From Bacteroidales bacterium (lineage in GTDB: Bacteria; Bacteroidota; Bacteroidia; Bacteroidales; JAAYJT01), in NCBI GenBank assembly GCA_049654165.1, contig JBASHR010000037.1:16780-80779 (forward strand): a stretch of DNA of 64,000 nt, in the 5' to 3' direction. Below, piece after piece: positions 1,166-39,345 of this stretch (within the stretch, counting starts at the first letter, position 1; each line of letters opens with the position of its first letter). The position numbers and the translations under genes were made by a program. Under the pieces are notes generated by a model, which had not been told where the DNA came from, did not search any database, and saw only the letters and a list, made by a program, of their open reading frames with translations.

Positions 1166-3064
1166 TCAGTCGAAAAACATCCAGTTTACACCGAATTTAA
1201 AAGCTCTGTCAGCCATAGGATATGTGGGTATCATGTAATATCTGTAGCCTGTTAATCCGGAATTAGCATGTTGCAGAAGTAGGAAGATCCGGGCACGTTT
1301 TATTCTCAGATTCAAAAAAACATCCACGAAAGGGTAATTGCCGGTTTTTGTCTGATCCTGCAGGTAAAAACTTCGTGATGCTGGCATATAAGCCTGAGCA
1401 TACCAGGCAGTATTGTAAAAAACCTCAATGCCTGTCAAAGCATATATGGCTCCTTTGAATAAGGAACCTTCATACGAAATTGTTGCATTTGCCAAAAGTG
1501 AAGGTAATTTCAGAGCTTCGTCCTTTGAAATATGCTGATACATCAAAGAATAATCAAGAGAGAGATTTCCTAACTTCAAACGGCTTTCCGCATAAGGGGC
1601 AATGATATTGAATTTCTCGCCGAACCAGGCAGGATGTGCCAAAGAATCGAGATAAGCAAAACCACTGATAGCATTAAATTTAACACCTGCCTTATGTTTT
1701 TTCCATGAGGCGTTGAGTTGCAGCTCGTTGATATTTTGTTTGTCAAAAGTATTATCCCATTTAAAATGGTTGGATTCAAACAAATGAAAAAATAATGGCG
1801 GAGTAACCAGAGATTTTTTTACTGACACCTCCAGAGCCAGCGGATGATTTTTACCGAAACGATAAATACCGCCAAGAGACAAAATTTGATCATTATCACG
1901 ATAACCACCTTTAACGATTTGATAATCAGCGTTTATATCAATACTATTACCAATTGATAAGCCGGATTTGAGCAAAGGCATCAACTGAGTATATTTTTTA
2001 TTGATGGTGTGCATACGGTAATGTATAAATTCATAACCGGCGCCGGCAGCAATATTGAATTTTATCCTGTCATTTTCGATCAAAGGAATGATGCATCGAA
2101 TATCGTTTAAAACAGTATGAATTACCAGTGAATCATAAGTCTGTGAGGAATCAATAAATATATCGGGATAAAAATCTGAGCCGGGGCTTTTATCGCTGTA
2201 TACCATTGCCAAACGTTGATAATTAAAGCTATGCATGAAGGCAGCAGGCTTCTTTGATTTTATGCTGTCTGAACTTTCTTTTCGTGCAGATGGTATCCTG
2301 AAATTAAAATATTGCCTGAAATTCACATTTGATTCCCTCCAGCGGTTTTCAGCATTGTTCAGCTTCACCGATATACGGTCGCGGGTGGGTTCCTGATTTT
2401 CTTCAAACATCGGAGCATTTGCAATACCGCCATTTTCCTGATGTATGAAACGATTATTTATGAAACTGCCAGTTATTCCGTATCTCTGGTTACGGGTTTT
2501 GTAATGGGTTTGAAATGCAACTGAAGCATTATCAGATTTTTGCCTGATGTAAGCTCCGTTTGATTTTATCAGATTAAAATTAACTCCAAGTCCTAAATTT
2601 CGATGCACTTGTTGATAATGTCTGCCATTGAAAAACTGCTCCCGGTTGCTTCCAATGGTATAAGCAAGGGCAGTAAAGGGAGTGTTTAATTTGTAATAAG
2701 GTATGTTTGAGGGGGTTAATCGGTATAAATCGTAAGCAGAAATACCATAATGTGAGCTAATTATATTCGCCGGCTCCCAATACATACCTGTATATACTAA
2801 TCCGGTATTCCCAAGCCAGGCATTCTTGCGACCATTGCCGAGCAATGGATGATAATGATGAAAATTATTCAGTAAAGTATCAATGGCAATATAACGAGGA
2901 GACATAATCTGTTCGGCACTGTCGAAATAATAAAAAACTTTCACACTGTCCGAAACATCTTTCCTGTGTTCTATTATTCCGGGTCTAACTTCCTGATCCT
3001 GAGCATATATTATCAGGGTGCAAAAAGTCAGGATCAAAAATGAAAGCTTTTTTAATTTATGCAT
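1166..3064 (-). CDS. outer-membrane beta-barrel protein (Bacteroidota putative-porin type)
   Basis: 632 aa. Signal peptide MHKLKKLSFLILTFCTLIIYAQ, alternating aromatic/Gly-rich strands, and an aromatic C-terminus FGVNWMFFD. The family assignment is from memory only. Confidence 0.55.
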   Translation of the reverse strand: MHKLKKLSFLILTFCTLIIYAQDQEVRPGIIEHRKDVSDSVKVFYYFDSAEQIMSPRYIAIDTLLNNFHHYHPLLGNGRKNAWLGNTGLVYTGMYWEPANIISSHYGISAYDLYRLTPSNIPYYKLNTPFTALAYTIGSNREQFFNGRHYQQVHRNLGLGVNFNLIKSNGAYIRQKSDNASVAFQTHYKTRNQRYGITGSFINNRFIHQENGGIANAPMFEENQEPTRDRISVKLNNAENRWRESNVNFRQYFNFRIPSARKESSDSIKSKKPAAFMHSFNYQRLAMVYSDKSPGSDFYPDIFIDSSQTYDSLVIHTVLNDIRCIIPLIENDRIKFNIAAGAGYEFIHYRMHTINKKYTQLMPLLKSGLSIGNSIDINADYQIVKGGYRDNDQILSLGGIYRFGKNHPLALEVSVKKSLVTPPLFFHLFESNHFKWDNTFDKQNINELQLNASWKKHKAGVKFNAISGFAYLDSLAHPAWFGEKFNIIAPYAESRLKLGNLSLDYSLMYQHISKDEALKLPSLLANATISYEGSLFKGAIYALTGIEVFYNTAWYAQAYMPASRSFYLQDQTKTGNYPFVDVFLNLRIKRARIFLLLQHANSGLTGYRYYMIPTYPMADRAFKFGVNWMFFD

Positions 3065-3321
3065 ATCGCTTATGACGTGCTGATAATTTTAGCCAAAAGT
3101 ATTAATAAATTGATTTAACGATAATATTGATTCAAACAGTATATTTTATATAATTGAAAATCAGATCAATCTGATTCTCAGAACGGAGTTCATATCATAA
3201 ACCCCTGCTGTAAAGGCAGTTTATACACAAAATCTTGTTTGTTTTACCCCAAAATCATATCAGATAAATTATTTGTTTTTGAAGTGTTAAGTTTTATAGC
3301 TCATAGTATTTAAAATAAATT

Positions 3322-3329
3322 TACTTTTG
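3322..3329 (+). promoter_or_regulatory. -7 element TAnnTTTG upstream of the symporter gene
   Basis: TACTTTTG, 40 nt upstream of ATG 3369. Confidence 0.45.
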
Positions 3330-3368
3330 GCTCATTAAAAAAGCATTGCTCTCAAATTAACTAAACTA

Positions 3369-5219
3369 TTGATAATTATGGTATTACAGACAATTGACTG
3401 GATTTTTGTTGCGCTGTTTTTTCTTGTTTTACTCACAATAGGATTATTGGCAGCACGTGATGCAGGTAAAAATACTGCCAGTTTTTTCCTTTCAGGACGT
3501 AATATGCCATGGTGGCTGCTAGGTGTTTCCATGGTAGCCACTACCTTCTCGGCTGACACGCCTAATTTGGTTACTGATATGGTGCGAACCGGCGGAGTAG
3601 CGGCAAACTGGCTGTGGTGGGCTTTTTTGCTTACAGGTATGCTCACTGTATTTGTTTATGCCAAACTCTGGAATCGTTCAAGAGTAATGACTGACCTCGA
3701 GTTTTATGAGTTGCGTTACAGTGGAAAAATGGCTGCTTTCCTCCGTGGGTTCAGAGCAATTTACTTAGGTTTCTTTTTCAATGTCATGGTTATTGCAAGT
3801 GTTTCTCTTGCATTCATTAAAATAGCCGGCGTTATGCTTGGCCTGCAGCCTGCACCGGCACTTATCATAGCTGCTGTTGTGGTTGTGATATATAGTGGCC
3901 TGGGAGGTCTGAAGTCAATTTTATGGACTGATTTGTTTCAGTTTAGCTTTGCAATGGCCGGTGCTATCATAGCCGCCGTTTTTGTAGCTCGTTCACCACA
4001 GGTAGGCGGATTGACAGCCTTGTTTTCAAATCCTGCTGTTGCCGGTAAACTCAGATTAATACCAGAAATATCAAATCCGGAACTGTTCTTAAGCATATTT
4101 CTGATCCCTATAGCTGTTCAGTGGTGGGCAGCATGGTATCCGGGAGCCGAACCCGGTGGTGGCGGATATATTGCCCAGCGTATGCTGTCAGCAAAGAATG
4201 AAAGTCATGCTGTAGGAGCTACCTTGCTTTTCAATTTCTTTCATTATGCCTTACGCCCCTGGCCCTGGATTATTGTTGGTTTGGGTTCGCTCATTGTTTT
4301 CCCCGATATCCAGTCAATGGTAACTGCTTTTCCTGATGTAGCCGAGCAGTATATTAAAAATGACTTTGCTTATCCTGCCATGCTACGCGAGTTTCTCCCT
4401 GCAGGAATACTTGGGCTGGTAGTAGCTTCGCTGATAGCAGCATTTATGTCAACGGTGGCATCGCAGTTAAACTGGGGCTCTTCATATCTGGTCAACGATT
4501 TTTACAGCAGGTTTTATAATCCCAAAGCCACTGAAAAACAAAAGGTTGCATTTGGCAGAATAAGCACAATCACATTAATGGTTTTTTCTGTGCTGCTGGC
4601 ATTGGTTTTACAAAACGCCCTTCAGGCTTTTCAGTATTTATTGATGATTGGTGCGGGTACAGGCCTTATTTACATTCTCAGATGGTTCTGGTGGCGTGTA
4701 AATTCATATTCTGAACTGTCAGCAATGATAGCTGCCGGATTTTTCTCGCTTGTTTTCATTCTTATTGAGAATTTTGCCATGGTTCAGTTACCTGATGAAA
4801 AGGTTGAAGTACTCGGGATTCTGACTACTGCCAAATACTGGGGAATGATCAAATTTGTGGGAGTAGTTATTTTAACCAGTGTTTCATGGTTGCTGGTTAC
4901 TTTTCTTACCCGTCCTGAAAACGATGAAACATTAAGAAGCTTTTACCGTAAGATCAGACCCGGAGGCCCTGGCTGGGAAGCTGTTGTTACGAAAGCACGA
5001 TCAGAAGGAGTTGAGTTAATTAAGGATAAAGACCTTCGCTGGGACGTTCCTACAGGGATTGTTTGTATGATACTTGGCTGCATTATGATTTACAGCACAT
5101 TGTTTGCAATTGGAAATTTCCTGTATTCAAACAATACTCTTGCATTCATTCTTGTTGGATTAGCTGTCGTTTCAGGATTCTTGCTGACAAGGTTCTGGAA
5201 AAAACTGAGAATGGCATAA
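3369..5219 (+). CDS. sodium:solute symporter family transporter
   Basis: 616 aa and highly hydrophobic with multiple TM segments. SSF-like N-terminus (FFLSGRNMPWWLLGVSMVATTFSADTP) and GGGYIAQRMLSAK. Confidence 0.85.
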   Translation: MIIMVLQTIDWIFVALFFLVLLTIGLLAARDAGKNTASFFLSGRNMPWWLLGVSMVATTFSADTPNLVTDMVRTGGVAANWLWWAFLLTGMLTVFVYAKLWNRSRVMTDLEFYELRYSGKMAAFLRGFRAIYLGFFFNVMVIASVSLAFIKIAGVMLGLQPAPALIIAAVVVVIYSGLGGLKSILWTDLFQFSFAMAGAIIAAVFVARSPQVGGLTALFSNPAVAGKLRLIPEISNPELFLSIFLIPIAVQWWAAWYPGAEPGGGGYIAQRMLSAKNESHAVGATLLFNFFHYALRPWPWIIVGLGSLIVFPDIQSMVTAFPDVAEQYIKNDFAYPAMLREFLPAGILGLVVASLIAAFMSTVASQLNWGSSYLVNDFYSRFYNPKATEKQKVAFGRISTITLMVFSVLLALVLQNALQAFQYLLMIGAGTGLIYILRWFWWRVNSYSELSAMIAAGFFSLVFILIENFAMVQLPDEKVEVLGILTTAKYWGMIKFVGVVILTSVSWLLVTFLTRPENDETLRSFYRKIRPGGPGWEAVVTKARSEGVELIKDKDLRWDVPTGIVCMILGCIMIYSTLFAIGNFLYSNNTLAFILVGLAVVSGFLLTRFWKKLRMA

Positions 5220-5343
5220 AATTTATTTAGGTTTCATAATTATTTCTGTGATCCGAACCATAAACTATTATGGACCTGATGGTTCAGAGTATTAGTAGTT
5301 AAGTGAGGAAATAAATAACGGATTGCAGAAAATGATAACTCAT

Positions 5344-5351
5344 TATCTTTG
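5344..5351 (+). promoter_or_regulatory. -7 element TAnnTTTG upstream of the DUF4293-like gene
   Basis: TATCTTTG followed by cacc, 29 nt upstream of ATG 5380. Confidence 0.5.
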
Positions 5352-5379
5352 CACCCCGATCACAGTAAAATTTAAGTTT

Positions 5380-5826
5380 ATGATACAGCGAATTCAGTCC
5401 GTTTATTTATTTCTGGCAGCCATCGCCATTGCGGTGATGTTTTTCTTTCCGATCGCTTATAGCGACACCCTTGATTTCTATTTTGGTTTACGTGGTATTT
5501 CTGATGATACTTTTTTAAATGTAAACACTAAACCTCTGATTATAATTGCTGTTGTATTGATCCTGCTGGCAGTATTCAGCATTTTTATGTATAAGAACCG
5601 ACTGCTGCAAATGAGGGTTATACGGTTTGGAGTTTTGCTCGATCTTGCTTTTATTATCGTTATTTATTTCGGTTATATTGATTCTATTTCTCAGAAGGCA
5701 AATGTAGAAGTGCAATATAAAACAGGGATTTATTTTCCTCTTATAATGCTGGTATTCTTGATTCTGGCCATACGGGCAATTATGGCTGATGAAAAGAAAG
5801 TTCGTGCTGCCGACCGCTTAAGATAG
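5380..5826 (+). CDS. DUF4293-like small membrane protein
   Basis: The start is taken at MIQRIQSVYLFLAAIAI (ATG 5380), 29 nt after a TAtcTTTG box. The protein has 4 predicted TM helices. Confidence 0.55.
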   Translation: MIQRIQSVYLFLAAIAIAVMFFFPIAYSDTLDFYFGLRGISDDTFLNVNTKPLIIIAVVLILLAVFSIFMYKNRLLQMRVIRFGVLLDLAFIIVIYFGYIDSISQKANVEVQYKTGIYFPLIMLVFLILAIRAIMADEKKVRAADRLR

Positions 5827-5827
5827 G

Positions 5828-6334
5828 CTATTGGCCTTGCTTCCATCGTGGCTTATCAAAAACTTCCAGATTGCCTGCTCTGGCATTCTCAACAGTAAAC
5901 CTTATCATGGTTATCTGCCTGTGAAGTCCGAAATTTCCTGCAGCTCCCGGATTAATGTGCAGAAGATTATGTTTATCGTCATACATGACCTTAAGAATAT
6001 GGGAATGACCGCAAACAAATAATCCAGGCTTATGCCTCAGTATCAGCGATCTGGCTTTTGGGTCATATTTATTTGGATAACCACCTATATGTATCAGTAA
6101 CACCTTCAAACTTTCGCAATCAAACAACTGATATTCCGGAAATAAGTTTCTGATATGTTGTTCATCAATATTACCGTAAACAGCTTTTAATGGCTTGAAT
6201 GCTTCAAGCCGTTCAACGACCTCAATACTACCAATATCGCCTGCATGCCATATTTCATCTACATCTTTGAAAAAACTTTCAAATTCAGAAGGCAATGAGC
6301 TATGAGTATCGGATAAGATTCCAATTCTTTTCAT
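5828..6334 (-). CDS. YfcE/MJ0936-family metallophosphoesterase
   Basis: 168 aa with the motifs ILSDTHS, HAGDIGS, GNID and CGHSH. Confidence 0.8.
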   Translation of the reverse strand: MKRIGILSDTHSSLPSEFESFFKDVDEIWHAGDIGSIEVVERLEAFKPLKAVYGNIDEQHIRNLFPEYQLFDCESLKVLLIHIGGYPNKYDPKARSLILRHKPGLFVCGHSHILKVMYDDKHNLLHINPGAAGNFGLHRQITMIRFTVENARAGNLEVFDKPRWKQGQ

Positions 6335-6500
6335 GAGAACTTCTGTAAAATCAGTTGCTTTTTAAATAACAGCATTGAGCCTCCAATGTTTCAATAACTA
6401 TACCAGCCTATTGGATGAAATAATCCATTTAGGCGATATTTTTACAAATATAATTGATATAGCTTAGGGGTTGGTTTTTATAAAAAATCATTTGGTCATC

Positions 6501-6524
6501 AATTGCTGCCGGCTTAAGCCAAAA
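6501..6524 (+). repeat. short repeat module aattgcNNcNggcttaagccaaaa, copy 1
   Basis: aattgctgccggcttaagccaaaa contains the perfect palindrome ggcttaagcc. It matches 12537-12560 at 21 of 24 positions in the same orientation. Confidence 0.7.
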
Positions 6525-6800
6525 TAATCCAAAAGTTCATAACATACTGATATCCTGGCTTTGCATATTAAACATGTAAAAGGATGATATTCAATGAATT
6601 ATGATTCAAGCTGATGTTTATTAAGAAATCTATCTGATAAATGATATAAAGGTTAATTTTTTCTAAAAAATCAAAAAACTATTGCACTGCCATTATAAAT
6701 GTATTAATTTTACAGCTGAAAATTTTACAGTCTTGCACACTGCTTCATTTGTCCCTTTCCATATATAACTTATTGTATTCTTGAATTTTAACTAGTCACA

Positions 6801-6877
6801 ATCAATTTGTGATTATTGAATCAATATTTTATGAAAAACCTGTTCTCAAAGTTCTTAGCTATGGTCTGATTTTTTTT
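6801..6877 (+). repeat. degenerate copy of the leader plus signal-peptide segment found at 8990-9070
   Basis: atcaatttgtgattattgaatcaatattttATGaaaaacctgttctcaaagttcttagctatggtctgatt. Compared with copy B, one A is missing after the ATG. The frame therefore shifts and reads MKNLFSKFLAMV followed by a stop. Confidence 0.75.
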
Positions 6878-7030
6878 GAATTGCAAGTAAAATTCATTGA
6901 GTTTCAATAATATAACAAAATAAATATATTGTCTTTAACCTCATTTCCAATTATTTATCGGGCTTTCGAAAGTCAATTCCATTATAAAATCTCATTCATG
7001 AAAACAGTAACCCATAAAAAAATTAGAAAG

Positions 7031-8425
7031 ATGAAACACTTCTTATTTTTCTTAGTATTGCTTGCTATTATATTAGCAGGATGTAAAAAATCGGACAACC
7101 CGATTAACAATGGTAAGATGGATTGGAACGCTCCTTCCCACCCATATATGGCTCCAAATGGAAAAAGCAATATCCATAACGATGCGTATATGACAGATGT
7201 ATACACAATCAAAGGCCCTGAGAATGGAGACCTTAATGTCGCTATGTCAGATATTGATAAATTAGGCGGCACAATTGCATTTAACGGCGAAAATAAAATC
7301 ATAACTCTCGGAATCTGGGCAGATGGTTCAAGAGCATTATATATCATTGAACCGACAAATCTTGAGGTTATAGACAAATATGACCTTCCGTCAGGAACCT
7401 TAGGTGTTGCAGGTGGTGGATATTTTTATTTAGATCAGAATTACAAAGCTGTTGTCCCAACCATTGACAAAAGAATATTAATAATTAGCACGACAGGAAA
7501 TCCAGCGAAGCTTACTTTAGAAAAAGAATATAGCCTATCGAGCCTGCCGGATCCTTGCATTGTCGCATCGGTGTTGCCAGATTGGAATGGAAATCTATGG
7601 TTCGTAACGGCAGAAGGAATAGTTGGGATTATAGGCGATAACACACTGAATACCATTCAGTTATCTCACTTTGATTCATTAACAAATACCGAAGTGAAAG
7701 AACCAATAGCGAATTCGTTTGCAATAGATGAATCAGGAGGCGTTTTTGTCGTATCTGATTATGCTTTATACAGATTAGAACTTAATGGCGGCAGCCCTGT
7801 AATAAGCTGGAGAGAAGAATACGACAGAGGAACTATGAAAAAGCCGGGACAGCTATCTTTTGGCTCAGGTACAACTCCTACCCTTATTTCAAATGATTAC
7901 GTTGCTATAACTGATAATGCGGAGCCACGGATGAACGTTCTGGTATACAAAAGGGCTAAGAATATCAGTTCGAACCGGCTTTTATGCAAAGTTCCGGTAT
8001 TCACAAGCGGTGCATCTTCAAATGAAAATTCGCTTATTGCTTTTAACAATTCAATTATTGTTGAGAATAATTATGGATATTCAAACCTTTTTAATTTTGT
8101 CGGGCATCTTTCCGAGCCAGGTTTAAGCCGGATTGATTTTAATGCAGATGGCAGTTACAAAATAGCCTGGACTTCAAATCTGATTATTCCATCAGTGGTT
8201 TCAAAGTACTCTTCTGTAACCAATTTAATTTATACTTATACTAAAGATGCTGAAGGTTGGTATTTTACAGCGGTTAATGCCAACTCGGGACAGGTCGTTT
8301 TTCAAAAGAAAGTTGGACCGGATGAGATTATATACAATAATCATTATTCAGGTATAGTAATTGCACCGGATGGTTCAGCATATGTAGGTGTTCCTAAGGG
8401 AGTTATGAAATTTTCAAAAAAATAA
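7031..8425 (+). CDS. hypothetical lipoprotein (possible beta-propeller)
   Basis: ORF 6929-8425. The best start is ATG 7031, giving MKHFLFFLVLLAIILAGC, a lipoprotein signal with a lipobox Cys. I recognise no family. Confidence 0.55.
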   Translation: MKHFLFFLVLLAIILAGCKKSDNPINNGKMDWNAPSHPYMAPNGKSNIHNDAYMTDVYTIKGPENGDLNVAMSDIDKLGGTIAFNGENKIITLGIWADGSRALYIIEPTNLEVIDKYDLPSGTLGVAGGGYFYLDQNYKAVVPTIDKRILIISTTGNPAKLTLEKEYSLSSLPDPCIVASVLPDWNGNLWFVTAEGIVGIIGDNTLNTIQLSHFDSLTNTEVKEPIANSFAIDESGGVFVVSDYALYRLELNGGSPVISWREEYDRGTMKKPGQLSFGSGTTPTLISNDYVAITDNAEPRMNVLVYKRAKNISSNRLLCKVPVFTSGASSNENSLIAFNNSIIVENNYGYSNLFNFVGHLSEPGLSRIDFNADGSYKIAWTSNLIIPSVVSKYSSVTNLIYTYTKDAEGWYFTAVNANSGQVVFQKKVGPDEIIYNNHYSGIVIAPDGSAYVGVPKGVMKFSKK

Positions 8426-8989
8426 GGATTCAATTTTGAAGTGGCCTAAGTCCTTTATTTAATATTTCACACATATGTAACTGATATTGTTTATACCATG
8501 AGAATTAAAAGGTGATTTATAACCTCCCTGGTTTATTGATAACTCACATTGCCTTCTTATCAACCTTATTTGAAGGAACAGTCTCTAATGAGGAATAAAT
8601 ATGTTTCTGACAAATTTTATCGGAATTTGACACCAAAAGCCTTTACTTATATTTTTATGATACAGAAAATTCAGAGCAAATATATTTCTGTTAAGTTTCA
8701 TTAACTCAGCTAATTATCCCTAGATCTTGAATTAGCTAATCAGTAATAATATTAAACTAGTCCTGACTCGAATATCAGGGCGCTTCCCCTTTCTGTTTCC
8801 GGAATTACAAAATACGCTATCCATGAAATAATGGATATAGGGAGTATTTCTACTCTGTTTATTCTGATCTTATTGTAGCTTTCATGAAGACACTTTAAAA
8901 TTTGGCTTTTTATTAACATTTGCAGCTAAATAACAAAGAAACAATAGCTATACTATGCTTGTTTTATTCTACAAGCTTTACCACCTAAA

Positions 8990-9070
8990 ATCAATATTTT
9001 AATCATTAAATCAATTTTTTATGAAAAAACCTGTTCTCAAAATTCTCAGTTATGGTCTGATTATTTATTT
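8990..9070 (+). repeat. leader plus signal-peptide segment of the LRR gene, paralogous to 6801-6877
   Basis: atcaatattttaatcattaaatcaattttttATGaaaaaacctgttctcaaaattctcagttatggtctgatt. The region from the ATG onward is about 90 percent identical to the other copy by hand alignment. Confidence 0.75.
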
Positions 9071-9110
9071 GGCCATTTTAAGTTATGCAGTAAACGCGCA
9101 AAATCCTTAA
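9021..9110 (+). other. orphan Sec signal-peptide mini-ORF, in frame with the downstream LRR gene and ended by TAA 9108-9110
   Basis: ATG 9021 gives MKKPVLKILSYGLIIYLAILSYAVNAQNP followed by a stop. Codon-by-codon counting shows 9021 and 9168 are in the same frame, and 9111-9167 is open (NSNVISRKEEKLQQRLDEK). Confidence 0.75.
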
Positions 9111-9167
9111 AACAGCAATGTCATTTCCCGTAAAGAGGAGAAACTACAGCAGCGACTTGATGAAAAG

Positions 9168-12100
9168 ATGAAGAAATATCAGGCTCGTCTGCAGAATATG
9201 GATAAACATGAATTAGAGCTTTTTCGTGAGCAGCAGACTCTTTTTCTTAAAAACGAATTGAAAGAATCTGTAAGACGCTCTGCTGATTACATTAAAAACA
9301 GGTTGGATACTTCTGGGAAAAAGCCTAAAGAACTTAACAACAACGCTATTGCTCCTACTCCAAAGCAGGGTTATGCAAAACCTACTTACTATGCATTAAT
9401 CACTTCCACGCCAGAATCTGATTCACTTGCACTGGTTGCCCTATATGAAGCTACTGACGGAGATAACTGGGTTGACAATACAAACTGGCTTATAGAGCCT
9501 GTAAGCTCATGGTATGGTATAGAAACCGATCCTGGCAATGGATCAGTAACACATATTGATCTCAATAATAATAATCTTGTAGGTGAAATTCCTCATGAAA
9601 TTGGCAGCCTAAGCTCACTTCAATATTTGAATTTAAGCTGGAATGAGCTTGAAGGAGAGCTTCCTGACGAGCTATTCAATTTAACTGGTTTACAACAACT
9701 TGATCTTTATATAAATAATTTAACCGGTATAATACCACCTGAAATAGGAAATTTAACTTCACTTTTGTCTTTAGATTTTGCTGTGAATGACTTTGAAGGG
9801 GGTCTTCCTTCTGAATTATTCAATTTAAATAATTTATGGTTTCTTAATCTTAGTATAAACTATTTTACTGGTACCATACCATCAGAGATTGGCAATTTGA
9901 ATATGCTTCAGTATTTATTTTTATACTGGAATGATTTTGAAGGAACATTGCCATATGAATTATCTAATCTAAATTTAAGCTGGCTGTTTATTGAAAATAA
10001 TGAATTTGAGGGCGAGATTCCCTACGACCTATGCTGGGCAGTTAGTGAAGAATTCCATTTTGATGGTAATTATTTTGATTTAGCAAACTGTGATGTTATC
10101 ACTTGTTTACTTGACAATGGAGTTACTATTCCGTCAGGCTGGCAGAAAAATGGATATAATCTGCTTGAAGATTGTAATTCTTTCTACATTAATATAATAC
10201 CGGAAGAAGGTTATATATGTTCAGAACCTTATTCATATTATTTTGGTGAGGTTATTGCACTGAATTATGATAATTTAATCTGGCACACAGATGGAGATGG
10301 ATATTTTGATGATGACCATTCTGAAAACCCTACCTATTACCCTGGTGTACAGGATATTATAGATGGAAATGTATCAATAGTAGTTGAAGCCTATGATGTT
10401 TGGCAGAATTATAGCAGCGATTATTTTGAGTTGTATATTTCAGAGACCAGTGCAGGTACTGATCTTAACATTCAGGTTGGAGAATCATGTTACTTAGGAA
10501 ATGCTTTTACTAATAATACTGACAGTTTTTTCTGGGAATCAACAGGTACCGGTTATTTTGATAATAATCTACTGATTGATCCAACTTATTATCCAGGTGT
10601 TGATGATATAAATGCCGGCAGTGTAACGTTGATCCTAACGTCTTATACCGGTGATTGTGTGGCAAGTGACAGTCTTGTATTATCATTTGACTATACCGGA
10701 GAACCTGATATAGAAGTTAATACACAGGATATTTATCCTGTAGTTGCACCAGAAGATTCAGGGAGTTTTTATGTTGAAATAAATAATCTGGGAACAGGAC
10801 CTTTAGTTTACGAGATTAATGTGAGCGAAGATGAATCCCGTGCTGCCAGCATTCAAAAAAGTGTAGAAGAAATCCTGATAAATAATCAGGTACGGCGCAC
10901 CAATGACTTTTCTCAATCCTCGGGTGTAAACTCATCAAAAATAAACAACCAGACACCTTCATTCCTAAGTGTCGAAGAGATCATGAAAAGGCGAAAAAAT
11001 GCCGCTTCTTACGTAGTGCCAGCTAAGATAATATGCGTTGTTGACAGTTATGGCTCTAATTTCACTTCATGGTTTTGGGACGAGCTTAATGCAACATACG
11101 GAGATATAATCATTGACTATGCAACTTTGTCAAAACCTGATATTTCCTATAACGATTTGGTAAATTCCGGTGCCGAAGTACTCATCATTGATAACGCATG
11201 GAATGCCGCACAAGTATATGGTGAATTAACAACCGATGAGATCAGCGCAATAGCAAAATATGTTGATGAAGGGAAGGGTTTAGTTGTTACAGCCGGTACA
11301 TTAAATAGTTATCTTGTTCCTAATCATAATCAGCTAGCTCCATTGCTTGGTTTGATCCCTAATGCGTTTTATGAATGGAACGATGGAGTTGAGTATGTTG
11401 GCGGAGAATATATCGATATTGAACTTCAGAACCCGGTTCATCCTGTTTTTAAGAAAATCTATAACCCATTTGTTCCGGGATATGCATCCAGTGCTATTCC
11501 ATATACAAAAGACTGGCATGATGCCATTGATGACGCAGAAATACTGGCTATTTCATCAGGAAATGAAGCTGTGATAACTGCTTACAGAAATCGAATCTAT
11601 TTGCCGCATTTACTTACTCTTGAGGTATCAGCCAATGATTATAAGTTAATGTATAATTCTATAATCTTTTGTGCAACTCATCCATCATGGCTTGACGTGA
11701 GCCCTTTAAGAGGAGAAATAGAATCTAATATGATGGATCAAATGGAGTTAAATATTAATTCGTATAACCTGCCTGCAGGGTTTTATTATGCTACAATAAG
11801 CATAAACAGTAATGACCCGGATGAATCCCCGCTTGATATATCTGTAACTCTGGAGATAACTGAAGGTGGAATAGAAGATTATTCATACCTTGACAACAGG
11901 ACTATTTCATTTGATACTTGCTATGCAGCTAATATAACCATATATGTGGGAGGAAACTGGTATACTGTTGAAGAAAATGCTATTGTGAATTTTGAAGCAG
12001 GTCAGAATATCATTATATTACCCGGCACACATTTTAAAGAAGGCTCAATGGTACATGCCAGAATAGTAACTGATGGGATATATTGTGCTTTGCCCATGAT

Positions 12101-12422
12101 GGCTGCGGTTAACACACAACCTGTTGAACCTTCGCCTAAGAGTATGATAGATTTTCCGGAAAACAAAGATGTTCCTTCTGATGCATTTAATGTTTTGGTT
12201 TATCCCAACCCAACCAATGCGCGTGTAATGCTTGAATTCTCAGAACCTGCATCAAACGCTATGATTGAAGTTTATGGGCTTATAGGCGAACGTGTATTAA
12301 CAAAAGAAATAAACGGAAGCAGTCTGTACGAACTTGATCTGTCATCTCAGCCACAGGGTATTTATCTGGTGAAGGTTTCAAACGGTAACTCAGTGGTTCT
12401 GAAAAAGATAATCAAGAAATAA
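9168..12422 (+). CDS. leucine-rich-repeat multidomain protein with T9SS C-terminal sorting domain (probably the body of a gene starting at 9021 and interrupted by a nonsense codon)
   Basis: 1084 aa. It has an LRR cap (LVALYEATDGDNWVDNTNW) followed by repeats of the NLxGxIPxEIGNLxxL type. Two internal repeats follow (W.TDGDGYFDD...PTYYPGVQDI and W.STGTGYFDN...PTYYPGVDDI). The C-terminus (VYPNPTNARVMLEF...GIYLVKVSNGNSVVLKKIIK) is typical of a T9SS type A CTD. The ORF as called has no signal peptide. Confidence 0.75.
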   Translation: MKKYQARLQNMDKHELELFREQQTLFLKNELKESVRRSADYIKNRLDTSGKKPKELNNNAIAPTPKQGYAKPTYYALITSTPESDSLALVALYEATDGDNWVDNTNWLIEPVSSWYGIETDPGNGSVTHIDLNNNNLVGEIPHEIGSLSSLQYLNLSWNELEGELPDELFNLTGLQQLDLYINNLTGIIPPEIGNLTSLLSLDFAVNDFEGGLPSELFNLNNLWFLNLSINYFTGTIPSEIGNLNMLQYLFLYWNDFEGTLPYELSNLNLSWLFIENNEFEGEIPYDLCWAVSEEFHFDGNYFDLANCDVITCLLDNGVTIPSGWQKNGYNLLEDCNSFYINIIPEEGYICSEPYSYYFGEVIALNYDNLIWHTDGDGYFDDDHSENPTYYPGVQDIIDGNVSIVVEAYDVWQNYSSDYFELYISETSAGTDLNIQVGESCYLGNAFTNNTDSFFWESTGTGYFDNNLLIDPTYYPGVDDINAGSVTLILTSYTGDCVASDSLVLSFDYTGEPDIEVNTQDIYPVVAPEDSGSFYVEINNLGTGPLVYEINVSEDESRAASIQKSVEEILINNQVRRTNDFSQSSGVNSSKINNQTPSFLSVEEIMKRRKNAASYVVPAKIICVVDSYGSNFTSWFWDELNATYGDIIIDYATLSKPDISYNDLVNSGAEVLIIDNAWNAAQVYGELTTDEISAIAKYVDEGKGLVVTAGTLNSYLVPNHNQLAPLLGLIPNAFYEWNDGVEYVGGEYIDIELQNPVHPVFKKIYNPFVPGYASSAIPYTKDWHDAIDDAEILAISSGNEAVITAYRNRIYLPHLLTLEVSANDYKLMYNSIIFCATHPSWLDVSPLRGEIESNMMDQMELNINSYNLPAGFYYATISINSNDPDESPLDISVTLEITEGGIEDYSYLDNRTISFDTCYAANITIYVGGNWYTVEENAIVNFEAGQNIIILPGTHFKEGSMVHARIVTDGIYCALPMMAAVNTQPVEPSPKSMIDFPENKDVPSDAFNVLVYPNPTNARVMLEFSEPASNAMIEVYGLIGERVLTKEINGSSLYELDLSSQPQGIYLVKVSNGNSVVLKKIIKK

Positions 12423-12452
12423 GTAGTTGGAAGAATAGGTTCATAATCCACA

Positions 12453-12515
12453 GAAATTGGCTAAAGCCGGTGATACAGAATACTTATATCTGGTAGCCGG
12501 GCTTTAGCCAATTTC
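12453..12515. repeat. inverted pair of ttggctaaagcc modules forming an 18-bp stem (1-nt bulge) with a 26-nt loop; candidate bidirectional terminator between the convergent LRR gene and moxR
   Basis: The left arm gaaattggctaaagccgg (12453-12470) pairs with the right arm ccgggctttagccaatttc (12497-12515). The element starts 31 nt after the LRR gene stop. Confidence 0.65.
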
Positions 12516-12536
12516 TTATTATAATAACTGGTTAAA

Positions 12537-12560
12537 AATTGCGACAGGCTTAAGCCAAAA
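12537..12560 (+). repeat. short repeat module aattgcNNcNggcttaagccaaaa, copy 2
   Basis: aattgcgacaggcttaagccaaaa is in direct orientation relative to 6501-6524. Confidence 0.7.
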
Positions 12561-12574
12561 ACTCAGATTCCGGT

Positions 12575-13540
12575 CTATTTCAGAAGTCCTTCAATAATGG
12601 CTTCTATGCTTACTCCATCAGCTTCAGCTTTATAGTTTCTTACAATTCTGTGCCTGAGCACATCTGCTGCAACAGCCTGCACGTCTTCAATGTCAGGAGA
12701 GTATTTTCCGTTCAGTACGCCATGGCATTTTGCTCCTATTATCAGATACTGGGATGCTCGTGGTCCGGCTCCCCAGGTAATATAATTATTGATATCAGCA
12801 GTAGCTTCCGGAGTTCCGGGACGGGTTTTAGCAGCTAATCTTACAGAATATTCATATACATTATCGGCAACCGGTATACGTCTGATCAGGTTTTGAAAAT
12901 ATACAATCTCCTCTCCGGTTAACACAATATTTGGCTGATATGAAGTGCCGAGGGTAGTCCGCTTCACAATATCCACTTCCTCTTTAAATGAAGGATAGTC
13001 CAGCCAGATATTAAACATGAACCTGTCGAGCTGAGCTTCAGGCAGAGGATAGGTTCCTTCCTGTTCAATAGGGTTTTGGGTTGCAAGAACAAAGAAAGGT
13101 TCAGCAAGCTTATGACTTTCTCCCGATACTGTTACTGAAAGTTCCTGCATGGCTTCAAGCAATGCCGATTGTGTTTTAGGAGGAGTACGGTTAATTTCGT
13201 CAGCAAGTATAATGTTGGCAAACACAGGTCCGCGAACAAATCTGAAATGACGGTTTTCATCCAGTATTTCGGTTCCTGTAATGTCAGAAGGCATTAAGTC
13301 AGGTGTGAACTGAATACGTGAATACGTCAATCCAAGGGATTTTGAAATAGTATTTACCATCAGTGTTTTTGCAAGTCCCGGCACACCGACAAGCAAAGCA
13401 TGCCCTTTACTGAAGATTGAAATTAAAACCTTTTTTACCACCTCATCCTGCCCGACAATTACTTTTGCAATTTCTGATTTAAGCTCTTTGTATTTTATTG
13501 ATAAAGCATCCAGTGCCTCAACATCCGTTTTATATTGCAT
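12575..13540 (-). CDS. MoxR-family AAA+ ATPase
   Basis: 321 aa with Walker A GVPGLAKT, Walker B ILADEINR, and ATQNPIEQEGTYPLPEAQLDRF. Confidence 0.9.
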   Translation of the reverse strand: MQYKTDVEALDALSIKYKELKSEIAKVIVGQDEVVKKVLISIFSKGHALLVGVPGLAKTLMVNTISKSLGLTYSRIQFTPDLMPSDITGTEILDENRHFRFVRGPVFANIILADEINRTPPKTQSALLEAMQELSVTVSGESHKLAEPFFVLATQNPIEQEGTYPLPEAQLDRFMFNIWLDYPSFKEEVDIVKRTTLGTSYQPNIVLTGEEIVYFQNLIRRIPVADNVYEYSVRLAAKTRPGTPEATADINNYITWGAGPRASQYLIIGAKCHGVLNGKYSPDIEDVQAVAADVLRHRIVRNYKAEADGVSIEAIIEGLLK

Positions 13541-13585
13541 AGTGTAGTTTAATTTAGTTATTGAAATGAGCCGTTAATACTCATT

Positions 13586-14926
13586 TTAAAAAATCCATTT
13601 TGTTTTGAAATCACAATCCCTATAAGCCTCAATTATATTGATATAGGTTTTTTTGTTTTTTTCCTTAACCCAATCAACAATGGCATTATGCTGTTTGTTT
13701 TCAAGAGCCCAGTTTTTTATACGATCATAATCGTCGTTAAGGTTTGCCTTATGGGGCGTAGTTTTATCTTTCAGATAAAGCAGACGATAAGCGTTATAAC
13801 CTTCTTCATCAAGAAAAGGGACAGCATTTGATATTTCACCAATTTTCATTTTATCAGCAACAAAATATACAGAAGGTTCAAGATGTTCACTTTCAAACCT
13901 GGGAGTACCTGTATATGGGTTTATCATCAGGCCTCCGTGCATTTTTCCCGGATCATCGGAATATTCAAGAGCCTGTTCATAAGTAATATTTCCGGCTCTG
14001 ATCTCACCGGCAAGGCTATCGAGAAAATTCCTGGCTTCTTCAAGCTCAACAGGAGAAGGCTTTGGACGAAGTAAAATATGACGTACATTTATGGTTTCAC
14101 CACGGCGCTCAAGCATTTGTATTATATGGTAACCTGCCTTGGTTTTTACTATATCTGAAATTTCACCTTTTTCAAGCCTGAATGCTACTGCTTCGAATTC
14201 AGGATATAACTCACCACGGCGGTAAAAGCCAAGTTCGCCGCCGCGACTGGCCGAACCCGGGTCTTCAGAATATAATGCAGCAAATGTTTCAAATCTTTCC
14301 CCCGCAAGGATCCGGTTACGATAAGTTTTTAGCTGGTTTCGAACTGCGTTGAGCTCGGCAGTGCTTACAGGAGGTTTTTTTATGATCTGCCCTATTTCAA
14401 ATTCTGTAGGAATAGTATAAATACTATCAGCAGGTATGCTTTTATAAAACGCACGTATTTCGGAAGGTGTAACTTTAATATCTTCAATAACTTGTTGCTG
14501 GGCTTCTTCTGCCATCATTTGCTCTTTAATAAGATCGCGAAACTCGTTTTTGATCTCCATAATGCTTTTCCCATAGAAATTTTCTAATTTCTCCTGCGAT
14601 CCAAACTGAGATGTAAAATATCTGATGCGCTGATTAAGGGCGTTTTCTAATTGATTGTCAGTGATCTCAATACTGTCAGCCTCCGCCTGGTTCACAAATA
14701 GTTTCTGTATCATCAGATCTTCAAGTATTTCACATTTCATGGTTTTTTTACCGCTTGTCAAACCTTTTGTCTGATGTTGAAGCAACTGGGTTTCAAGGTC
14801 TGATTCAAGAATTATCCGGTTCCCGACTACAGCTACCACTTCGTCAATAAGCACTTCAGTTTGCTGGGAAAACAACTGGAGTTGCATAAAAATCAATGAA
14901 ACAGAAATAACAATCAGCTTTTTCAT
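13586..14926 (-). CDS. SurA-like peptidyl-prolyl isomerase/chaperone
   Basis: Start taken at MKKLIVISVSLIF (ATG complement 14924-14926). Parvulin-type segments are present (GGELGFYRRGELYPEFEAVAF...GYHIIQ). Confidence 0.8.
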   Translation of the reverse strand: MKKLIVISVSLIFMQLQLFSQQTEVLIDEVVAVVGNRIILESDLETQLLQHQTKGLTSGKKTMKCEILEDLMIQKLFVNQAEADSIEITDNQLENALNQRIRYFTSQFGSQEKLENFYGKSIMEIKNEFRDLIKEQMMAEEAQQQVIEDIKVTPSEIRAFYKSIPADSIYTIPTEFEIGQIIKKPPVSTAELNAVRNQLKTYRNRILAGERFETFAALYSEDPGSASRGGELGFYRRGELYPEFEAVAFRLEKGEISDIVKTKAGYHIIQMLERRGETINVRHILLRPKPSPVELEEARNFLDSLAGEIRAGNITYEQALEYSDDPGKMHGGLMINPYTGTPRFESEHLEPSVYFVADKMKIGEISNAVPFLDEEGYNAYRLLYLKDKTTPHKANLNDDYDRIKNWALENKQHNAIVDWVKEKNKKTYINIIEAYRDCDFKTKWIF

Positions 14927-14945
14927 CAAAATATCGTTCGGGTTT

Positions 14946-15800
14946 TTAATAAATCTCAAAATAATTGTTTGTCAGCGCATTTTCATATATCTCGTTCTGA
15001 AGATTTTGCAACAGTTCGAGTTTACGACGGTTTACAATTATTTGTCTTATATTGTTTTCGTGCATGCTTAACGGAGCAATGCTTTCTTTTATTTTAAAAT
15101 CTTTGATTTCAACCATATAAACATACAGCGAATCCTTTACTTCTATATTTCTGTTATACCGGATAAAATTTTCCTGATTATAAGTGTTTATAGGTATAAT
15201 ATTAAGCAGATCAGAGAAATAAATCCATGAGTCATCAAAAAGCGAGTAATTCAATCCGTTTTGAATGCAATATTTTTCCAGCTCCGTTTTACTTCTTATA
15301 TCATGGTTCTGCCATAGTTTCTTCAAGTGTGGTAATTGTTTCTTATCGTCAATTAACTGGACATAATCAGCTTTTATAATATTTTCCTTCAATTCAAAAT
15401 TCTGCATATTCTGATCGTAGTATGTCTGAATTTCTTTTTGGCTAACCACCGTATCCAGCTTTTGCCTTATTATACTTGATTCGAACTCATATATTACCAG
15501 GCTGTTACGATATTCTTCAAGCTGTCTGCTGAAATCTTTCTCATCAGGTGTAAGTGTCTTCTCTGCCTGATCGAGCAATAACTGTTTTCTTACCCAACTG
15601 TTTACCACATTCTGAACTATAGTAAGGCTGTCCTGAGATGATAATCCCTTTCCGGCAATCATGTCCTGAATATCTGAGTAACTGAGATATTTGTTGTGAA
15701 CTCTTGCCAATACTATTTCGTTACTGGTAGCAGTGGATAAATATTGACATCCGCCCAGCAGTACAACAACTGTCAGGAAAAGCAGTATCAGCCTGTTCAT
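14946..15800 (-). CDS. hypothetical lipoprotein, SurA-N-like chaperone without an obvious PPIase domain
   Basis: 284 aa. Signal and lipobox MNRLILLFLTVVVLLGGC. It sits between two PPIase genes on the same strand. Confidence 0.5.
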   Translation of the reverse strand: MNRLILLFLTVVVLLGGCQYLSTATSNEIVLARVHNKYLSYSDIQDMIAGKGLSSQDSLTIVQNVVNSWVRKQLLLDQAEKTLTPDEKDFSRQLEEYRNSLVIYEFESSIIRQKLDTVVSQKEIQTYYDQNMQNFELKENIIKADYVQLIDDKKQLPHLKKLWQNHDIRSKTELEKYCIQNGLNYSLFDDSWIYFSDLLNIIPINTYNQENFIRYNRNIEVKDSLYVYMVEIKDFKIKESIAPLSMHENNIRQIIVNRRKLELLQNLQNEIYENALTNNYFEIY

Positions 15801-15811
15801 GTTTCGGAAAC

Positions 15812-17827
15812 TTATTTTATTTGCGAAAGTAATTCGTTATTTACTTTAACCGGAAATTTCGCCCTAAGCTCCTGTATCCATTCTTTTTCCAAATAATTTT
15901 GATAATCAGCAGTTACCAGCCCTCTGACTTCATTAAGCTTTTTGGGTGCAGGTTCAAGCACATTATGAATAAAGACCAGAACTGTCTGATCGTCCTTTTC
16001 AATTTTGTTTATGGTTCCTTTCTCCCAGCTTGTAGCGTCCACGTCTTCATTTTCACCTTTCTGGAATAAACTGTGTTTTATAGTAAGACCCTGTGATTCA
16101 ATATTTATAGTGTCAAGTATTTCGTTGTTTGGAACCTTATTGGCAATCATTTGTAGTACCAGATCAATTTTACTGTTGTCTGTGTCGGTTAAGGTATAAA
16201 CGGAGGCATCGGCACGTTCGCCCCACATATAATCATTTTCGTGTTGTTTATGAAATTCGGCCAGCCCAATTGTATCCTGCACTGCCCTTGACCAGATTTT
16301 TTTATCAGTAAGTTCGAACAGCAAAATACCATCCCTGTACTCATTTACAAGTGCCTTAAACTCAGGATATTTGTTTTCCAGTTGTTTATCTTCATAAGCA
16401 AGTAAAACCTTTTCAACGAACTTCTTATAGGCTTCATCCACATAAAACCGGATGTTTTCCTTAGCACCTCTGCGTTGATTTTTCACGATATAATCGGCAA
16501 ATTCCTGCTGCAATACACTTTGCTGACCTATACTAAATAGTTCTTTCTTAAGGCTCATTTTACGGGGTATGCTCCACGAACCTGAAAATACGGAATCAGT
16601 TACATTCTGATAGAATGTTTCAAGAGATTTGGGATTTTCCTTGAAGCCGTATTCATTTTTAATCCTTTTTAAAAGCGATTGTTTTATTACTACTGAACGT
16701 TCATTCTTTTGCACTTTGTCTTTGATTTCAGCATATGAATCTTCAAAAGAGCCCGGTTTTTTCTGTTCCAGCAGCTTGATAATATGCCATCCTATATGCG
16801 AATGAAAAGGTTTTGAGAATTCGCCCGGTTCTTTCAGTAATGATATTTGATAGATAAAATCCGGTATCATACGGTTCGAACCAAACCATTGCAGAACGCC
16901 GCCTTTATCGGCAGTTGAGCGATCATCACTATAGGTACGTGCCACATCTTCAAAGGGTTCGCCTGCAAGAAGCTTGTTGTAGGCTTCGTTGATTTTTTCT
17001 TTCTGAGCAACACTGTCTTTAGCTTTGTCTTCTGAAGGGTTAAGAAGCAGGATATGTGCTATAAGTGCTTGACCCATAGCAGGTTTTCTGTCTGTAATAT
17101 AAATAAGATGATAACCGTATTCGCTTCTTACCGGCATTGAAACTTCCCCTTTCTTAAGCGCATAAGCTCCTGATTCAAAAGCATATATCATATCAAAAGC
17201 GCTGAAATATCCTAAATCGCCTTTGTTACCTTTCATGATCCTGCCGGCGGTTTCACGATCACGAACCGACTGATCTTCTGAGAACTCAAGCGCAAGATCT
17301 TCAAATTTTTCTCCAGCTTTTACACGTTTGTAAAGGTCCATGGTCTTGTTCCATGCTCTCAGTGTATCTTCAGGTGAAGCCTGTTTTTCAACTCTGATAA
17401 GCAAATGGCTGGCACGAATATCTTCCAGCGACCTGTCGTAAGCTTCCTTTATCAGTCTTTCAGTAGCTTCTTCATCAACAAGGTAAGGTTTGGCAAGTTG
17501 TTCACGGTATCCCTGTAATTCGTCCTTGAACGACTGCTCATTTTGTAATCCGGCATCTTCAGCTTCTAAAACCTTCAGTCTGAAATTGATATATAAATCA
17601 AGATATTCCTGTAGCGATTTTGTATCAAGCTTATCGGCCTGTGCATTGTTTTTACGATAAACCTTTAAAAAATCTTCCACAGTAATTTTTTCATTGCCTA
17701 TTTCAGCAAGAATCTGTTTACTAATGTCTTGTGCTGCAACATTTCCTAAAATAAAAAACAGTGCTGCTGTAAACGCTGCTATTTTCCTTAAAACTGTTGC
17801 CTTTCTGACGATTAATTTAGTTGTCAT
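15812..17827 (-). CDS. PpiC/parvulin-type peptidyl-prolyl isomerase (PpiD/SurA-like)
   Basis: Start taken at MTTKLIV (complement 17825-17827). Two parvulin-like blocks are present (ASHLLIRV...GDLGYFSAFDMIYAFE...GYHLIY and AHILL...GGVLQWF...GWHIIK). Confidence 0.8.
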   Translation of the reverse strand: MTTKLIVRKATVLRKIAAFTAALFFILGNVAAQDISKQILAEIGNEKITVEDFLKVYRKNNAQADKLDTKSLQEYLDLYINFRLKVLEAEDAGLQNEQSFKDELQGYREQLAKPYLVDEEATERLIKEAYDRSLEDIRASHLLIRVEKQASPEDTLRAWNKTMDLYKRVKAGEKFEDLALEFSEDQSVRDRETAGRIMKGNKGDLGYFSAFDMIYAFESGAYALKKGEVSMPVRSEYGYHLIYITDRKPAMGQALIAHILLLNPSEDKAKDSVAQKEKINEAYNKLLAGEPFEDVARTYSDDRSTADKGGVLQWFGSNRMIPDFIYQISLLKEPGEFSKPFHSHIGWHIIKLLEQKKPGSFEDSYAEIKDKVQKNERSVVIKQSLLKRIKNEYGFKENPKSLETFYQNVTDSVFSGSWSIPRKMSLKKELFSIGQQSVLQQEFADYIVKNQRRGAKENIRFYVDEAYKKFVEKVLLAYEDKQLENKYPEFKALVNEYRDGILLFELTDKKIWSRAVQDTIGLAEFHKQHENDYMWGERADASVYTLTDTDNSKIDLVLQMIANKVPNNEILDTINIESQGLTIKHSLFQKGENEDVDATSWEKGTINKIEKDDQTVLVFIHNVLEPAPKKLNEVRGLVTADYQNYLEKEWIQELRAKFPVKVNNELLSQIK

Positions 17828-17920
17828 GGATAAGTATTTTAATTCAGATTTAGATTTCTTTTGGCGAAAATAAAACAAATTAAAAACATGATGCCCGTTG
17901 GCATTAAAAATATTCTGTTT

Positions 17921-33553: not shown

Positions 33554-33737
33554 AATAAATATTACTATCTGATTTTGAGGGTGCAAAATTACACTTTTTT
33601 TTAATACGGCAAACTTAATGACAAAAAATCTTTTTTCAGCAGTGTTTTTTTGATTACAATCCTTTGATCCAACAATACAGGAATTATAATATTAAGGAAA
33701 TCAGGGAATTATAATTCAAACAGTGGATTGAATTTTA

Positions 33738-33785
33738 TAAACGGGCTAAAGTCCGTTACTATTCACAATGATATAATCACAACCC
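33738..33785. repeat. solo copy of the hairpin module (aacgggctaaagtccgtt + attcacaatgatataatca) in the rpmE2/rho intergenic region
   Basis: It matches the array module gaacgggctaaagcccgtt / ccggctaaagccggtggcaattcataatcata, with one stem position changed (a G-T pair). Confidence 0.6.
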
Positions 33786-38804: not shown

Positions 38805-39345
38805 AAATCCCGTAGAGCAGCAATATTCCAGCGCTTCGGGAACCTCAGCATCCGGAACTACAAATCCCGCAGGTTATTTAATCCCGTAGTGTCGCAGATA
38901 CTTACGGGATGGTATGATTATAACGCCTGTGGAACTCTAAACCACATACAAACCCTGAAGGGGTGAAATATTCCGGCGCTTCGGGAACCTCAGCGCACGG
39001 AGTTAATAGCCCTGTAAGGGCTATATTTTGGTAGAAAATCATAAAAATTCAATCTCTAAGCCCCGTAGGGGCGGCATGTCAATAACACGTGTGGTACTCT
39101 ATGCCTCTCACAAACCCTGGAGGGGTTTAATAACAAATGATCGATGAATAATGAATAGGAACGGGCTTTAGCCCGTTCATTAAATAAATTCCCTCTTCCC
39201 TCTGGGCTTTAGCCCAAATCTACTGGATGTTAAAATCTAATTACATTTTTAAACTGGTTTGGCTAAAGCCAATATTGTGTTGTTACCCCTTTTTTACCAC
39301 CGGCTAAAGCCGGTGGCAATTCATGATCATACCATTATGAATAAA
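38805..39345. repeat. mosaic array 2 of the same hairpin-module family
   Basis: It contains ggcgct-N11-agcgc (38975-38996), atcccgtagtgtc/gatacttacgggat (38881-38910), ccccgtagggg (39061-39071), acgggc-ttta-gcccgt (39161-39176) and ccaccggc-taaa-gccggtgg (39297-39316). By eye, 39110-39340 is homologous to 25008-25230 at roughly 80 percent identity. Confidence 0.85.

Follow-up and report, generated by a model that had tools for sequence, protein, structure and literature searches.

The window studied here is a stretch of 64,000 nucleotides from contig JBASHR010000037.1 of a Bacteroidales metagenome-assembled genome (MAG). At 9021-12422 it carries the coding sequence of a leucine-rich repeat (LRR) protein with a sorting domain of the type IX secretion system (T9SS), interrupted after 29 codons by a TAA at 9108-9110. 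Past this stop the same frame is open from 9111 via ATG 9168 to a TAA at 12420-12422, and the 1084 codons from ATG 9168 onwards are annotated as an open reading frame (ORF). A scan of the sequence between 9111 and 9167 found no in-frame ATG, GTG or TTG. The public record of the 9168 ORF (P0001) reads 'MAG: T9SS type A sorting domain-containing protein [Bacteroidales bacterium]' and bears no pseudogene flag. An initial annotation had claimed that one in-frame TAA cuts the signal peptide off from a T9SS cargo protein; coordinates and translation proved to be exact.

The upstream ORF of 29 codons shares 92-95% of its nucleotides with the 5' end of the orthologue at the syntenic locus of a related contig (L001) and for this reason is not a chance ORF. 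Reconstructed across the stop, 9021-12422 was probably a single gene of 1133 codons until recently.

The two secretion signals lie on separate ORFs

The peptide encoded from 9021 has a basic n-region (MKK), a hydrophobic core (PVLKILSYGLIIYLAILSY) and the residues AVNA ahead of QNP. V-N-A occupy positions -3 to -1 and Q position +1 relative to the predicted cleavage site of the 29-residue peptide, and the Kyte-Doolittle mean over 15 residues peaks at +2.1. By this heuristic test the peptide has the properties of a Sec signal peptide cleaved by signal peptidase I (SPI), including the Q-rule of Bacteroidetes, i.e. Gln at position +1 of the SPI cleavage site (PMC5837995, PMC10653852). The 9168 product begins with 70 highly charged residues (hydropathy maximum -0.58), in which no signal peptide was detectable by Kyte-Doolittle analysis.

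At residues 1011-1084 the 9168 ORF encodes a T9SS type A sorting domain, matching PF18962 with an E value of 5e-15 (56 bits, cut-off 27) and TIGR04183 with 6.5e-15 (54.9 bits, cut-off 23). Cargo of the T9SS crosses the inner membrane by Sec and loses its signal peptide in the periplasm, from where the folded C-terminal domain (CTD) leads to the T9SS translocon (PMC11285876). A Sec signal peptide on the same polypeptide, as expected of such cargo, is lacking in the window gene and present in seven out of seven relatives. The reconstructed gene shares with T9SS type A cargo, e.g. RgpB of P. gingivalis, the SPI signal peptide with Q at +1 and the Por_Secre_tail/TIGR04183 CTD. In the window, however, the two signals are on separate ORFs and the annotated product would be unable to enter the pathway. 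Unlike in RgpB, the passenger is not a protease but a plant-type LRR array with an uncharacterised region of about 650 residues.

The LRRs are located at about residues 85-345 of the 9168 ORF and match the models LRR_14 (49 bits, cut-off 40), LRR_8 (38 bits, cut-off 27) and LRR_1 (52 bits, cut-off 20.6). Their best sequence matches in the PDB were FLS2 (4e-135) and GSO1 (1.5e-117), with E values inflated by the repeats. The array has in common with the plant-type (PS-class) ectodomains of FLS2, GSO1 and TDR the 24-residue repeats LxxLxLxxNxLxGxIP and an N-cap. Yet the window protein is bacterial, has neither kinase nor transmembrane segment and ends in a T9SS CTD; the likeness is one of repeat class, not of orthology. 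The central region of approximately 590 residues had no match in Pfam. The protein is an uncharacterised member of a common Bacteroidota class that combines LRRs with a T9SS CTD. The features of the locus are compiled in Table 1.

Table 1. Features of the locus with window positions. Paralogues A and B are the two LRR-T9SS genes of related loci.
Feature	Position	Strand	Remarks
5' part of the presumed ancestral gene, first 29 codons	9021-9107	+	encodes MKKPVLKILSYGLIIYLAILSYAVNAQNP, then stop
Predicted signal peptide MKKPVLKILSYGLIIYLAILSYAVNA plus QNP, the first three mature residues	within 9021-9107	+	Sec/SPI; peptide coding part 9021-9098
Premature TAA	9108-9110	+	AAA (Lys) in the five closest relatives; same TAA in Logan contig L020
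19 in-frame sense codons, NSNVISRKEEKLQQRLDEK	9111-9167	+	homologous to the mature N-terminal linker of orthologues; now untranslated
Annotated ORF, 1084 aa, NCBI MGB4204602.1	9168-12422	+	starts at an internal Met codon of the presumed ancestral gene
Domain layout of the 9168 ORF	LRRs ~9420-10200; T9SS type A CTD 12198-12419	+	charged linker, LRRs, uncharacterised centre, CTD
Paralogue-A-like tract	9104-9700	+	82-88% nucleotide identity to A versus 43-75% to syntenic B; 3' limit approximate
Relic 5' module: upstream region, ATG, ~17 signal-peptide codons, 1-nt deletion	6769-6880	+	79% identity to 8958-9066
Point of absence of paralogue A, relatives with extra ~3.3 kb	~6488-6524	.	flanks join; comparison with L008

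Relatives have a lysine codon in place of the stop

Homologues were searched with the reconstructed 1133-residue protein as a query, and the DNA loci of the relatives were then fetched and aligned. Besides the 9168 product itself (P0001), the search yielded a full-length protein of 1181 residues with 74% identity (P0002), two proteins with 45-47% identity (P0003 and P0004) and a shorter paralogue type of 688 residues (P0005). Two contigs, L001 and L007, represent the orthologous locus by synteny with the gene order 464-aa gene, LRR gene, moxR and surA. The signal peptide was contiguous with the linker and the LRR body in each of the seven relatives recovered.

AAA (Lys) aligns with the TAA of the window in the five closest relatives, which belong to two paralogous lineages. 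The window reads CCT TAA AAC at this site, L001 and L007 read CAG AAA GAT, and CCA AAA AAC is found in L002-L004, L008 and L009. The distant relatives P0003 and P0004 have Ala or Asn at the position of the stop, and neither the DNA nor the protein alignments contained a relative with a stop there. In the close relatives the counterpart of the Met codon at 9168 is an internal Met (…DDKMKKY…), which is not conserved in the distant ones. To judge from these alignments, the TAA is a single A-to-T transversion at 9108 in an AAA lysine codon. Because the relatives carry AAA at the site, we regard the stop as a nonsense change from AAA to TAA and not as a conserved recoding site.

The initial annotation had proposed a very recent nonsense pseudogene, read-through or phase variation, or a sequencing or assembly error. 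The first proposal is the best supported of the three, as the relatives have AAA and all of them read through. The sense codon that it had looked for in orthologues is there in the form predicted for a nonsense mutation. Orthologues starting at the equivalent of 9168, which would have pointed the other way, were not seen; the relatives start at the equivalent of 9021.

Scans of genomes and metagenomes with the N-terminal peptide returned only other species (L007-L009) and no conspecific. A protein search for fragments with an intact codon, using the N-terminal 132 residues, gave three word candidates, none of them significant; owing to a limitation of the word index it is uninformative on absence.

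The lesion would be recent

In comparison with the syntenic orthologue of L001 the dN/dS ratio was 0.26 overall and 0.21 for codons 241-1133 at a dS of about 0.5. By these ratios the gene was under purifying selection over nearly all of its divergence from L001. The remaining ORF of 3252 nt contains no further stop or frameshift. About 5.1% of the possible single substitutions in it create stops, and the lack of a second lesion therefore argues that the inactivation, if real, was very recent. The neutral divergence since then would roughly be below 1.8% (95% limit, indels ignored).

Paralogues and mosaic structure of the locus

The locus of the relatives has the order metallophosphoesterase (minus strand), LRR-T9SS paralogue A, a 464-aa lipoprotein-like gene, LRR-T9SS paralogue B, moxR (minus strand) and surA (minus strand). 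The LRR gene of the window is syntenic with paralogue B. Paralogue A, which is P0005-like, is absent from the window locus, where L008 758-4033 has no counterpart, and from the Logan contig L020 of the same strain. The extra segment of the relatives, compared with window 6334-6998, is flanked by direct repeats of about 400 bp with ~72% identity (L008 880-1283 and 4034-4432).

The gene upstream of the LRR gene (7031-8425) has a product of 464 residues that bears a lipoprotein signal (MKHFLFFLVLLAIILAGC) and had no match in Pfam or NCBIfam. Its identity to the relatives, where it always lies between two LRR-T9SS genes, is 92%. A decayed 5' module precedes this gene in the relatives as well as in the window. 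The structure of the locus indicates a history of duplication and decay.

Sliding identity revealed a mosaic structure of the window gene. Its sequence resembles B as far as 9098 (92-95%) and A between 9106 and about 9400-9700, and the resemblance to B resumes at about 9730. Informative sites place the 5' switch between 9098 and 9106, and bases 9104, 9107 and 9108 are unique to the window. The switch next to the TAA could mark one end of a gene-conversion tract. Another possibility is that the B copy of the relatives has altered its linker, as P0003 and P0004 look more A-like in this part.

A frameshift allele in a sister lineage

Paralogue B of a sister lineage carries a deletion of 1 nt just before the CTD, which changes AAAGAAGGCTC to AAAGAAGCTC (GAAGGCTC to GAAGCTC) and splits the gene into a body of 1062 residues and a T9SS CTD of 124 residues. 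The deletion is present in L010-L017 (e.g. L010 9151-9190). The equivalent position of the window, about 12065-12075, has an intact GG. In all, 11 contigs from at least seven samples and different assemblers have the deletion, and other contigs keep the intact form of 1181 residues. In L014 and L015 the same deletion also occurs in paralogue A together with flanking variants of the B-type, which points to conversion between the copies. Judged by these assemblies, inactivating alleles of the LRR-T9SS gene family circulate in nature. The absence of paralogue A from the window likewise fits a family in which loss of function is common. This raises the prior that the stop in the window is a genuine mutation.

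Is the stop an assembly artefact?

Exact look-ups of neighbouring proteins located the same strain in SRR28062291, SRR33456736 and ERZ22666087, with only a contig of SRR28062291 reaching the 5' end of the gene. This contig (L020, Logan, contig 22282) matches window 3031-11931 (8.9 kb) at 100% identity and has the same TAA. Gene calling on L020 gave the same 29-aa ORF and a truncated ORF. Likewise 100% identical are L018 (SRR28062291) to window 11903-19540 and L019 (SRR33456736) to 11133-17751.

L018 and L020 meet at window 11903-11931 with an overlap of 29 nt, exactly where the 3' block shared by A and B of the relatives starts (11901-12465). Judged by this contig break, a further sequence with the 3' block seems to be present in the sample, as a paralogue elsewhere in the genome or in a co-occurring relative.

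The TAA might be a sequencing or assembly artefact in a gene that is truly intact with AAA, produced by a consensus error or by a chimeric join of two paralogous copies within the metagenome. In favour of this, the sequence comes from a MAG, the TAA lies within ~8 nt of the B-like to A-like switch with the window-unique bases 9104, 9107 and 9108 clustered there, and the break of the same-strain Logan contigs at the start of the paralogue-shared block shows that repeats do hamper assembly of the gene. Yet the Logan contig is identical over 8.9 kb and unbroken through the site. De Bruijn chimeras, moreover, are put together from k-mers already present and bring in no new bases, and the frame is fully kept on both sides of the TAA. 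No other gene in the 64-kb window looks broken, the larger gaps holding small genes (e.g. L19 and L31) or non-coding repeats. As this densely coding sequence has no other interrupted gene, the assembly does not appear to be error-rich. We consider an artefact unlikely. The identical sequence from a second pipeline (Logan) has weakened the assembly-error proposal of the initial annotation, as it makes an assembler-specific error unlikely. Since both assemblies may rest on the same reads, an error at the read level would not show in this comparison.

Read-through and phase variation

If the stop served as a regulatory device, through programmed or leaky read-through of UAA or through a phase-variable switch, some full-length exported protein would still be made. 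The downstream ORF is wholly intact, and LRR proteins at the surface are among the usual targets of on/off variation. In addition, gene conversion between paralogues is evidently active, as indicated by the same 1-nt deletion in both copies of L014 and L015, and could in principle restore the codon. On the other hand, the stop is conserved in no relative and TAA is the standard terminator here. UAA is also the least leaky stop codon.

The window offered no element on which such a device could rely. There were no tRNA genes that might act as suppressors in its 64 kb and no Rfam families, and RNA folding around the stop was not unusual (z = -1.1). A simple-sequence tract was absent at the stop, where merely a run of A4 follows the T. 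The 5' region is not surrounded by a credible inverted repeat of an invertible element, the sole candidate of 24 nt and 71% complementarity being at chance level. Nor does the window hold a donor copy covering the TAA site. Upstream of the gene the strict promoter motif TAnnTTTG was not found; a scan for sigma-70 promoters and terminators gave chance level, and such a scan is uninformative for Bacteroidota.

Programmed read-through or phase-variable loci share with the window gene an early in-frame stop in an otherwise intact gene for a surface protein. They differ from it in that the stop of the window is without conservation, stimulatory element, simple-sequence repeat or invertible segment. 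The initial annotation's second proposal finds no footing in these data, and a regulatory stop is very improbable.

Reassignment of the TAA codon was ruled out by the stop-codon usage of the window. TAA is its commonest terminator, ending 28 of the 48 long ORFs, the LRR-T9SS gene itself included.

The annotated start

It is hardly credible that the annotation is correct. The protein would then be made from ATG 9168 and function with no signal peptide, either inside the cytoplasm or after export by another route, and the 29-codon ORF would be an unrelated leader. NCBI does list the 1084-aa protein from 9168, and no start codon lies closer downstream of the stop than this ATG. But no relative starts there; Met 9168 is internal in close relatives and lacks conservation in distant ones. 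The 19 codons from the stop to 9168, too, represent coding sequence with homology to the relatives, and a T9SS CTD takes effect from the periplasm, once Sec has exported the protein (PMC11285876).

A putative dispersed repeat element in the window

A non-coding array at 24420-25560 consists of units of ~430-440 nt in about 2.6 copies that are 85-94% identical. It is dotted with short GC-rich hairpins, e.g. GGGCTAAAGCCC, CCCCGAAGGGG and CCCCTACGGGG. Fragments of the element occur in the intergenic regions 33728-33768 and 39058-39234 and in an intergenic region of a relative (L008 769-845). It looks like a dispersed element similar to repetitive extragenic palindromes (REP) or miniature inverted-repeat transposable elements (MITE); Rfam had no match for the array.

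Probable loss of the exported LRR protein

The data are best explained by a change of A to T at 9108 that would have turned Lys codon 30 (AAA), which encodes the fourth residue past the signal-peptidase site, into TAA. Ribosomes initiating at 9021 would release a peptide of 29 residues containing the signal peptide and QNP only. Initiation at the internal ATG 9168, if it occurs at all, would give rise to a cytoplasmic protein without a signal peptide, for which the CTD would be useless and the T9SS out of reach. Thus we favor the view that the gene is, with good probability, a very young nonsense pseudogene, i.e. a null allele for surface display in the sampled population.

Several points weigh against this view. 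Its support comes from assembled sequences, and the TAA allele may have any frequency in the population. SRR28062291 is possibly the source of the MAG itself; the two assemblies would then share their reads and not be independent at that level. The searches brought up no conspecific with an intact codon to compare with, and the 5' end of the gene in this strain comes from one sample only. The TAA is situated exactly at the paralogue-tract switch and could in principle mark a chimeric join. Finally, the loss of export and function is inferred from knowledge of the pathway.

A young nonsense pseudogene or segregating loss-of-function allele whose start has been re-called at the next in-frame ATG is a well-known phenomenon. 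Young bacterial nonsense pseudogenes that are annotated as intact with a shortened N-terminus likewise have a stop near the 5' end, an intact remainder, a sense codon in the orthologues and a restart at the next ATG. The only unusual detail of the window gene is the position of its stop at a paralogue-tract boundary.

More speculatively, loss-of-function alleles of the LRR gene pair could be under recurrent selection, e.g. for escape from phage, predators or host factors, with gene conversion both spreading and repairing the lesions. This would amount to conversion-driven on/off and antigenic variation of T9SS cargo, to which the TAA would belong either as a part or as a side effect. The lesions in question are the nonsense change and the loss of paralogue A in the window and, in the sister lineage, the frameshift that removes the CTD and spreads between the paralogues; room for the scenario comes from these independent lesions and from the coincidence of the stop with a paralogue-tract boundary. 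We give this scenario a small chance.

For annotation, MGB4204602.1 is better marked as an internal-stop pseudogene, or as a gene of 1133 codons that is terminated prematurely, because counting it as intact would inflate inferred secretomes. The nonsense change in the window, the missing paralogue A at the same locus and the frameshift allele in relatives together suggest that, in some populations of these uncultured Bacteroidales, the LRR surface proteins of this family are not needed or are selected against.

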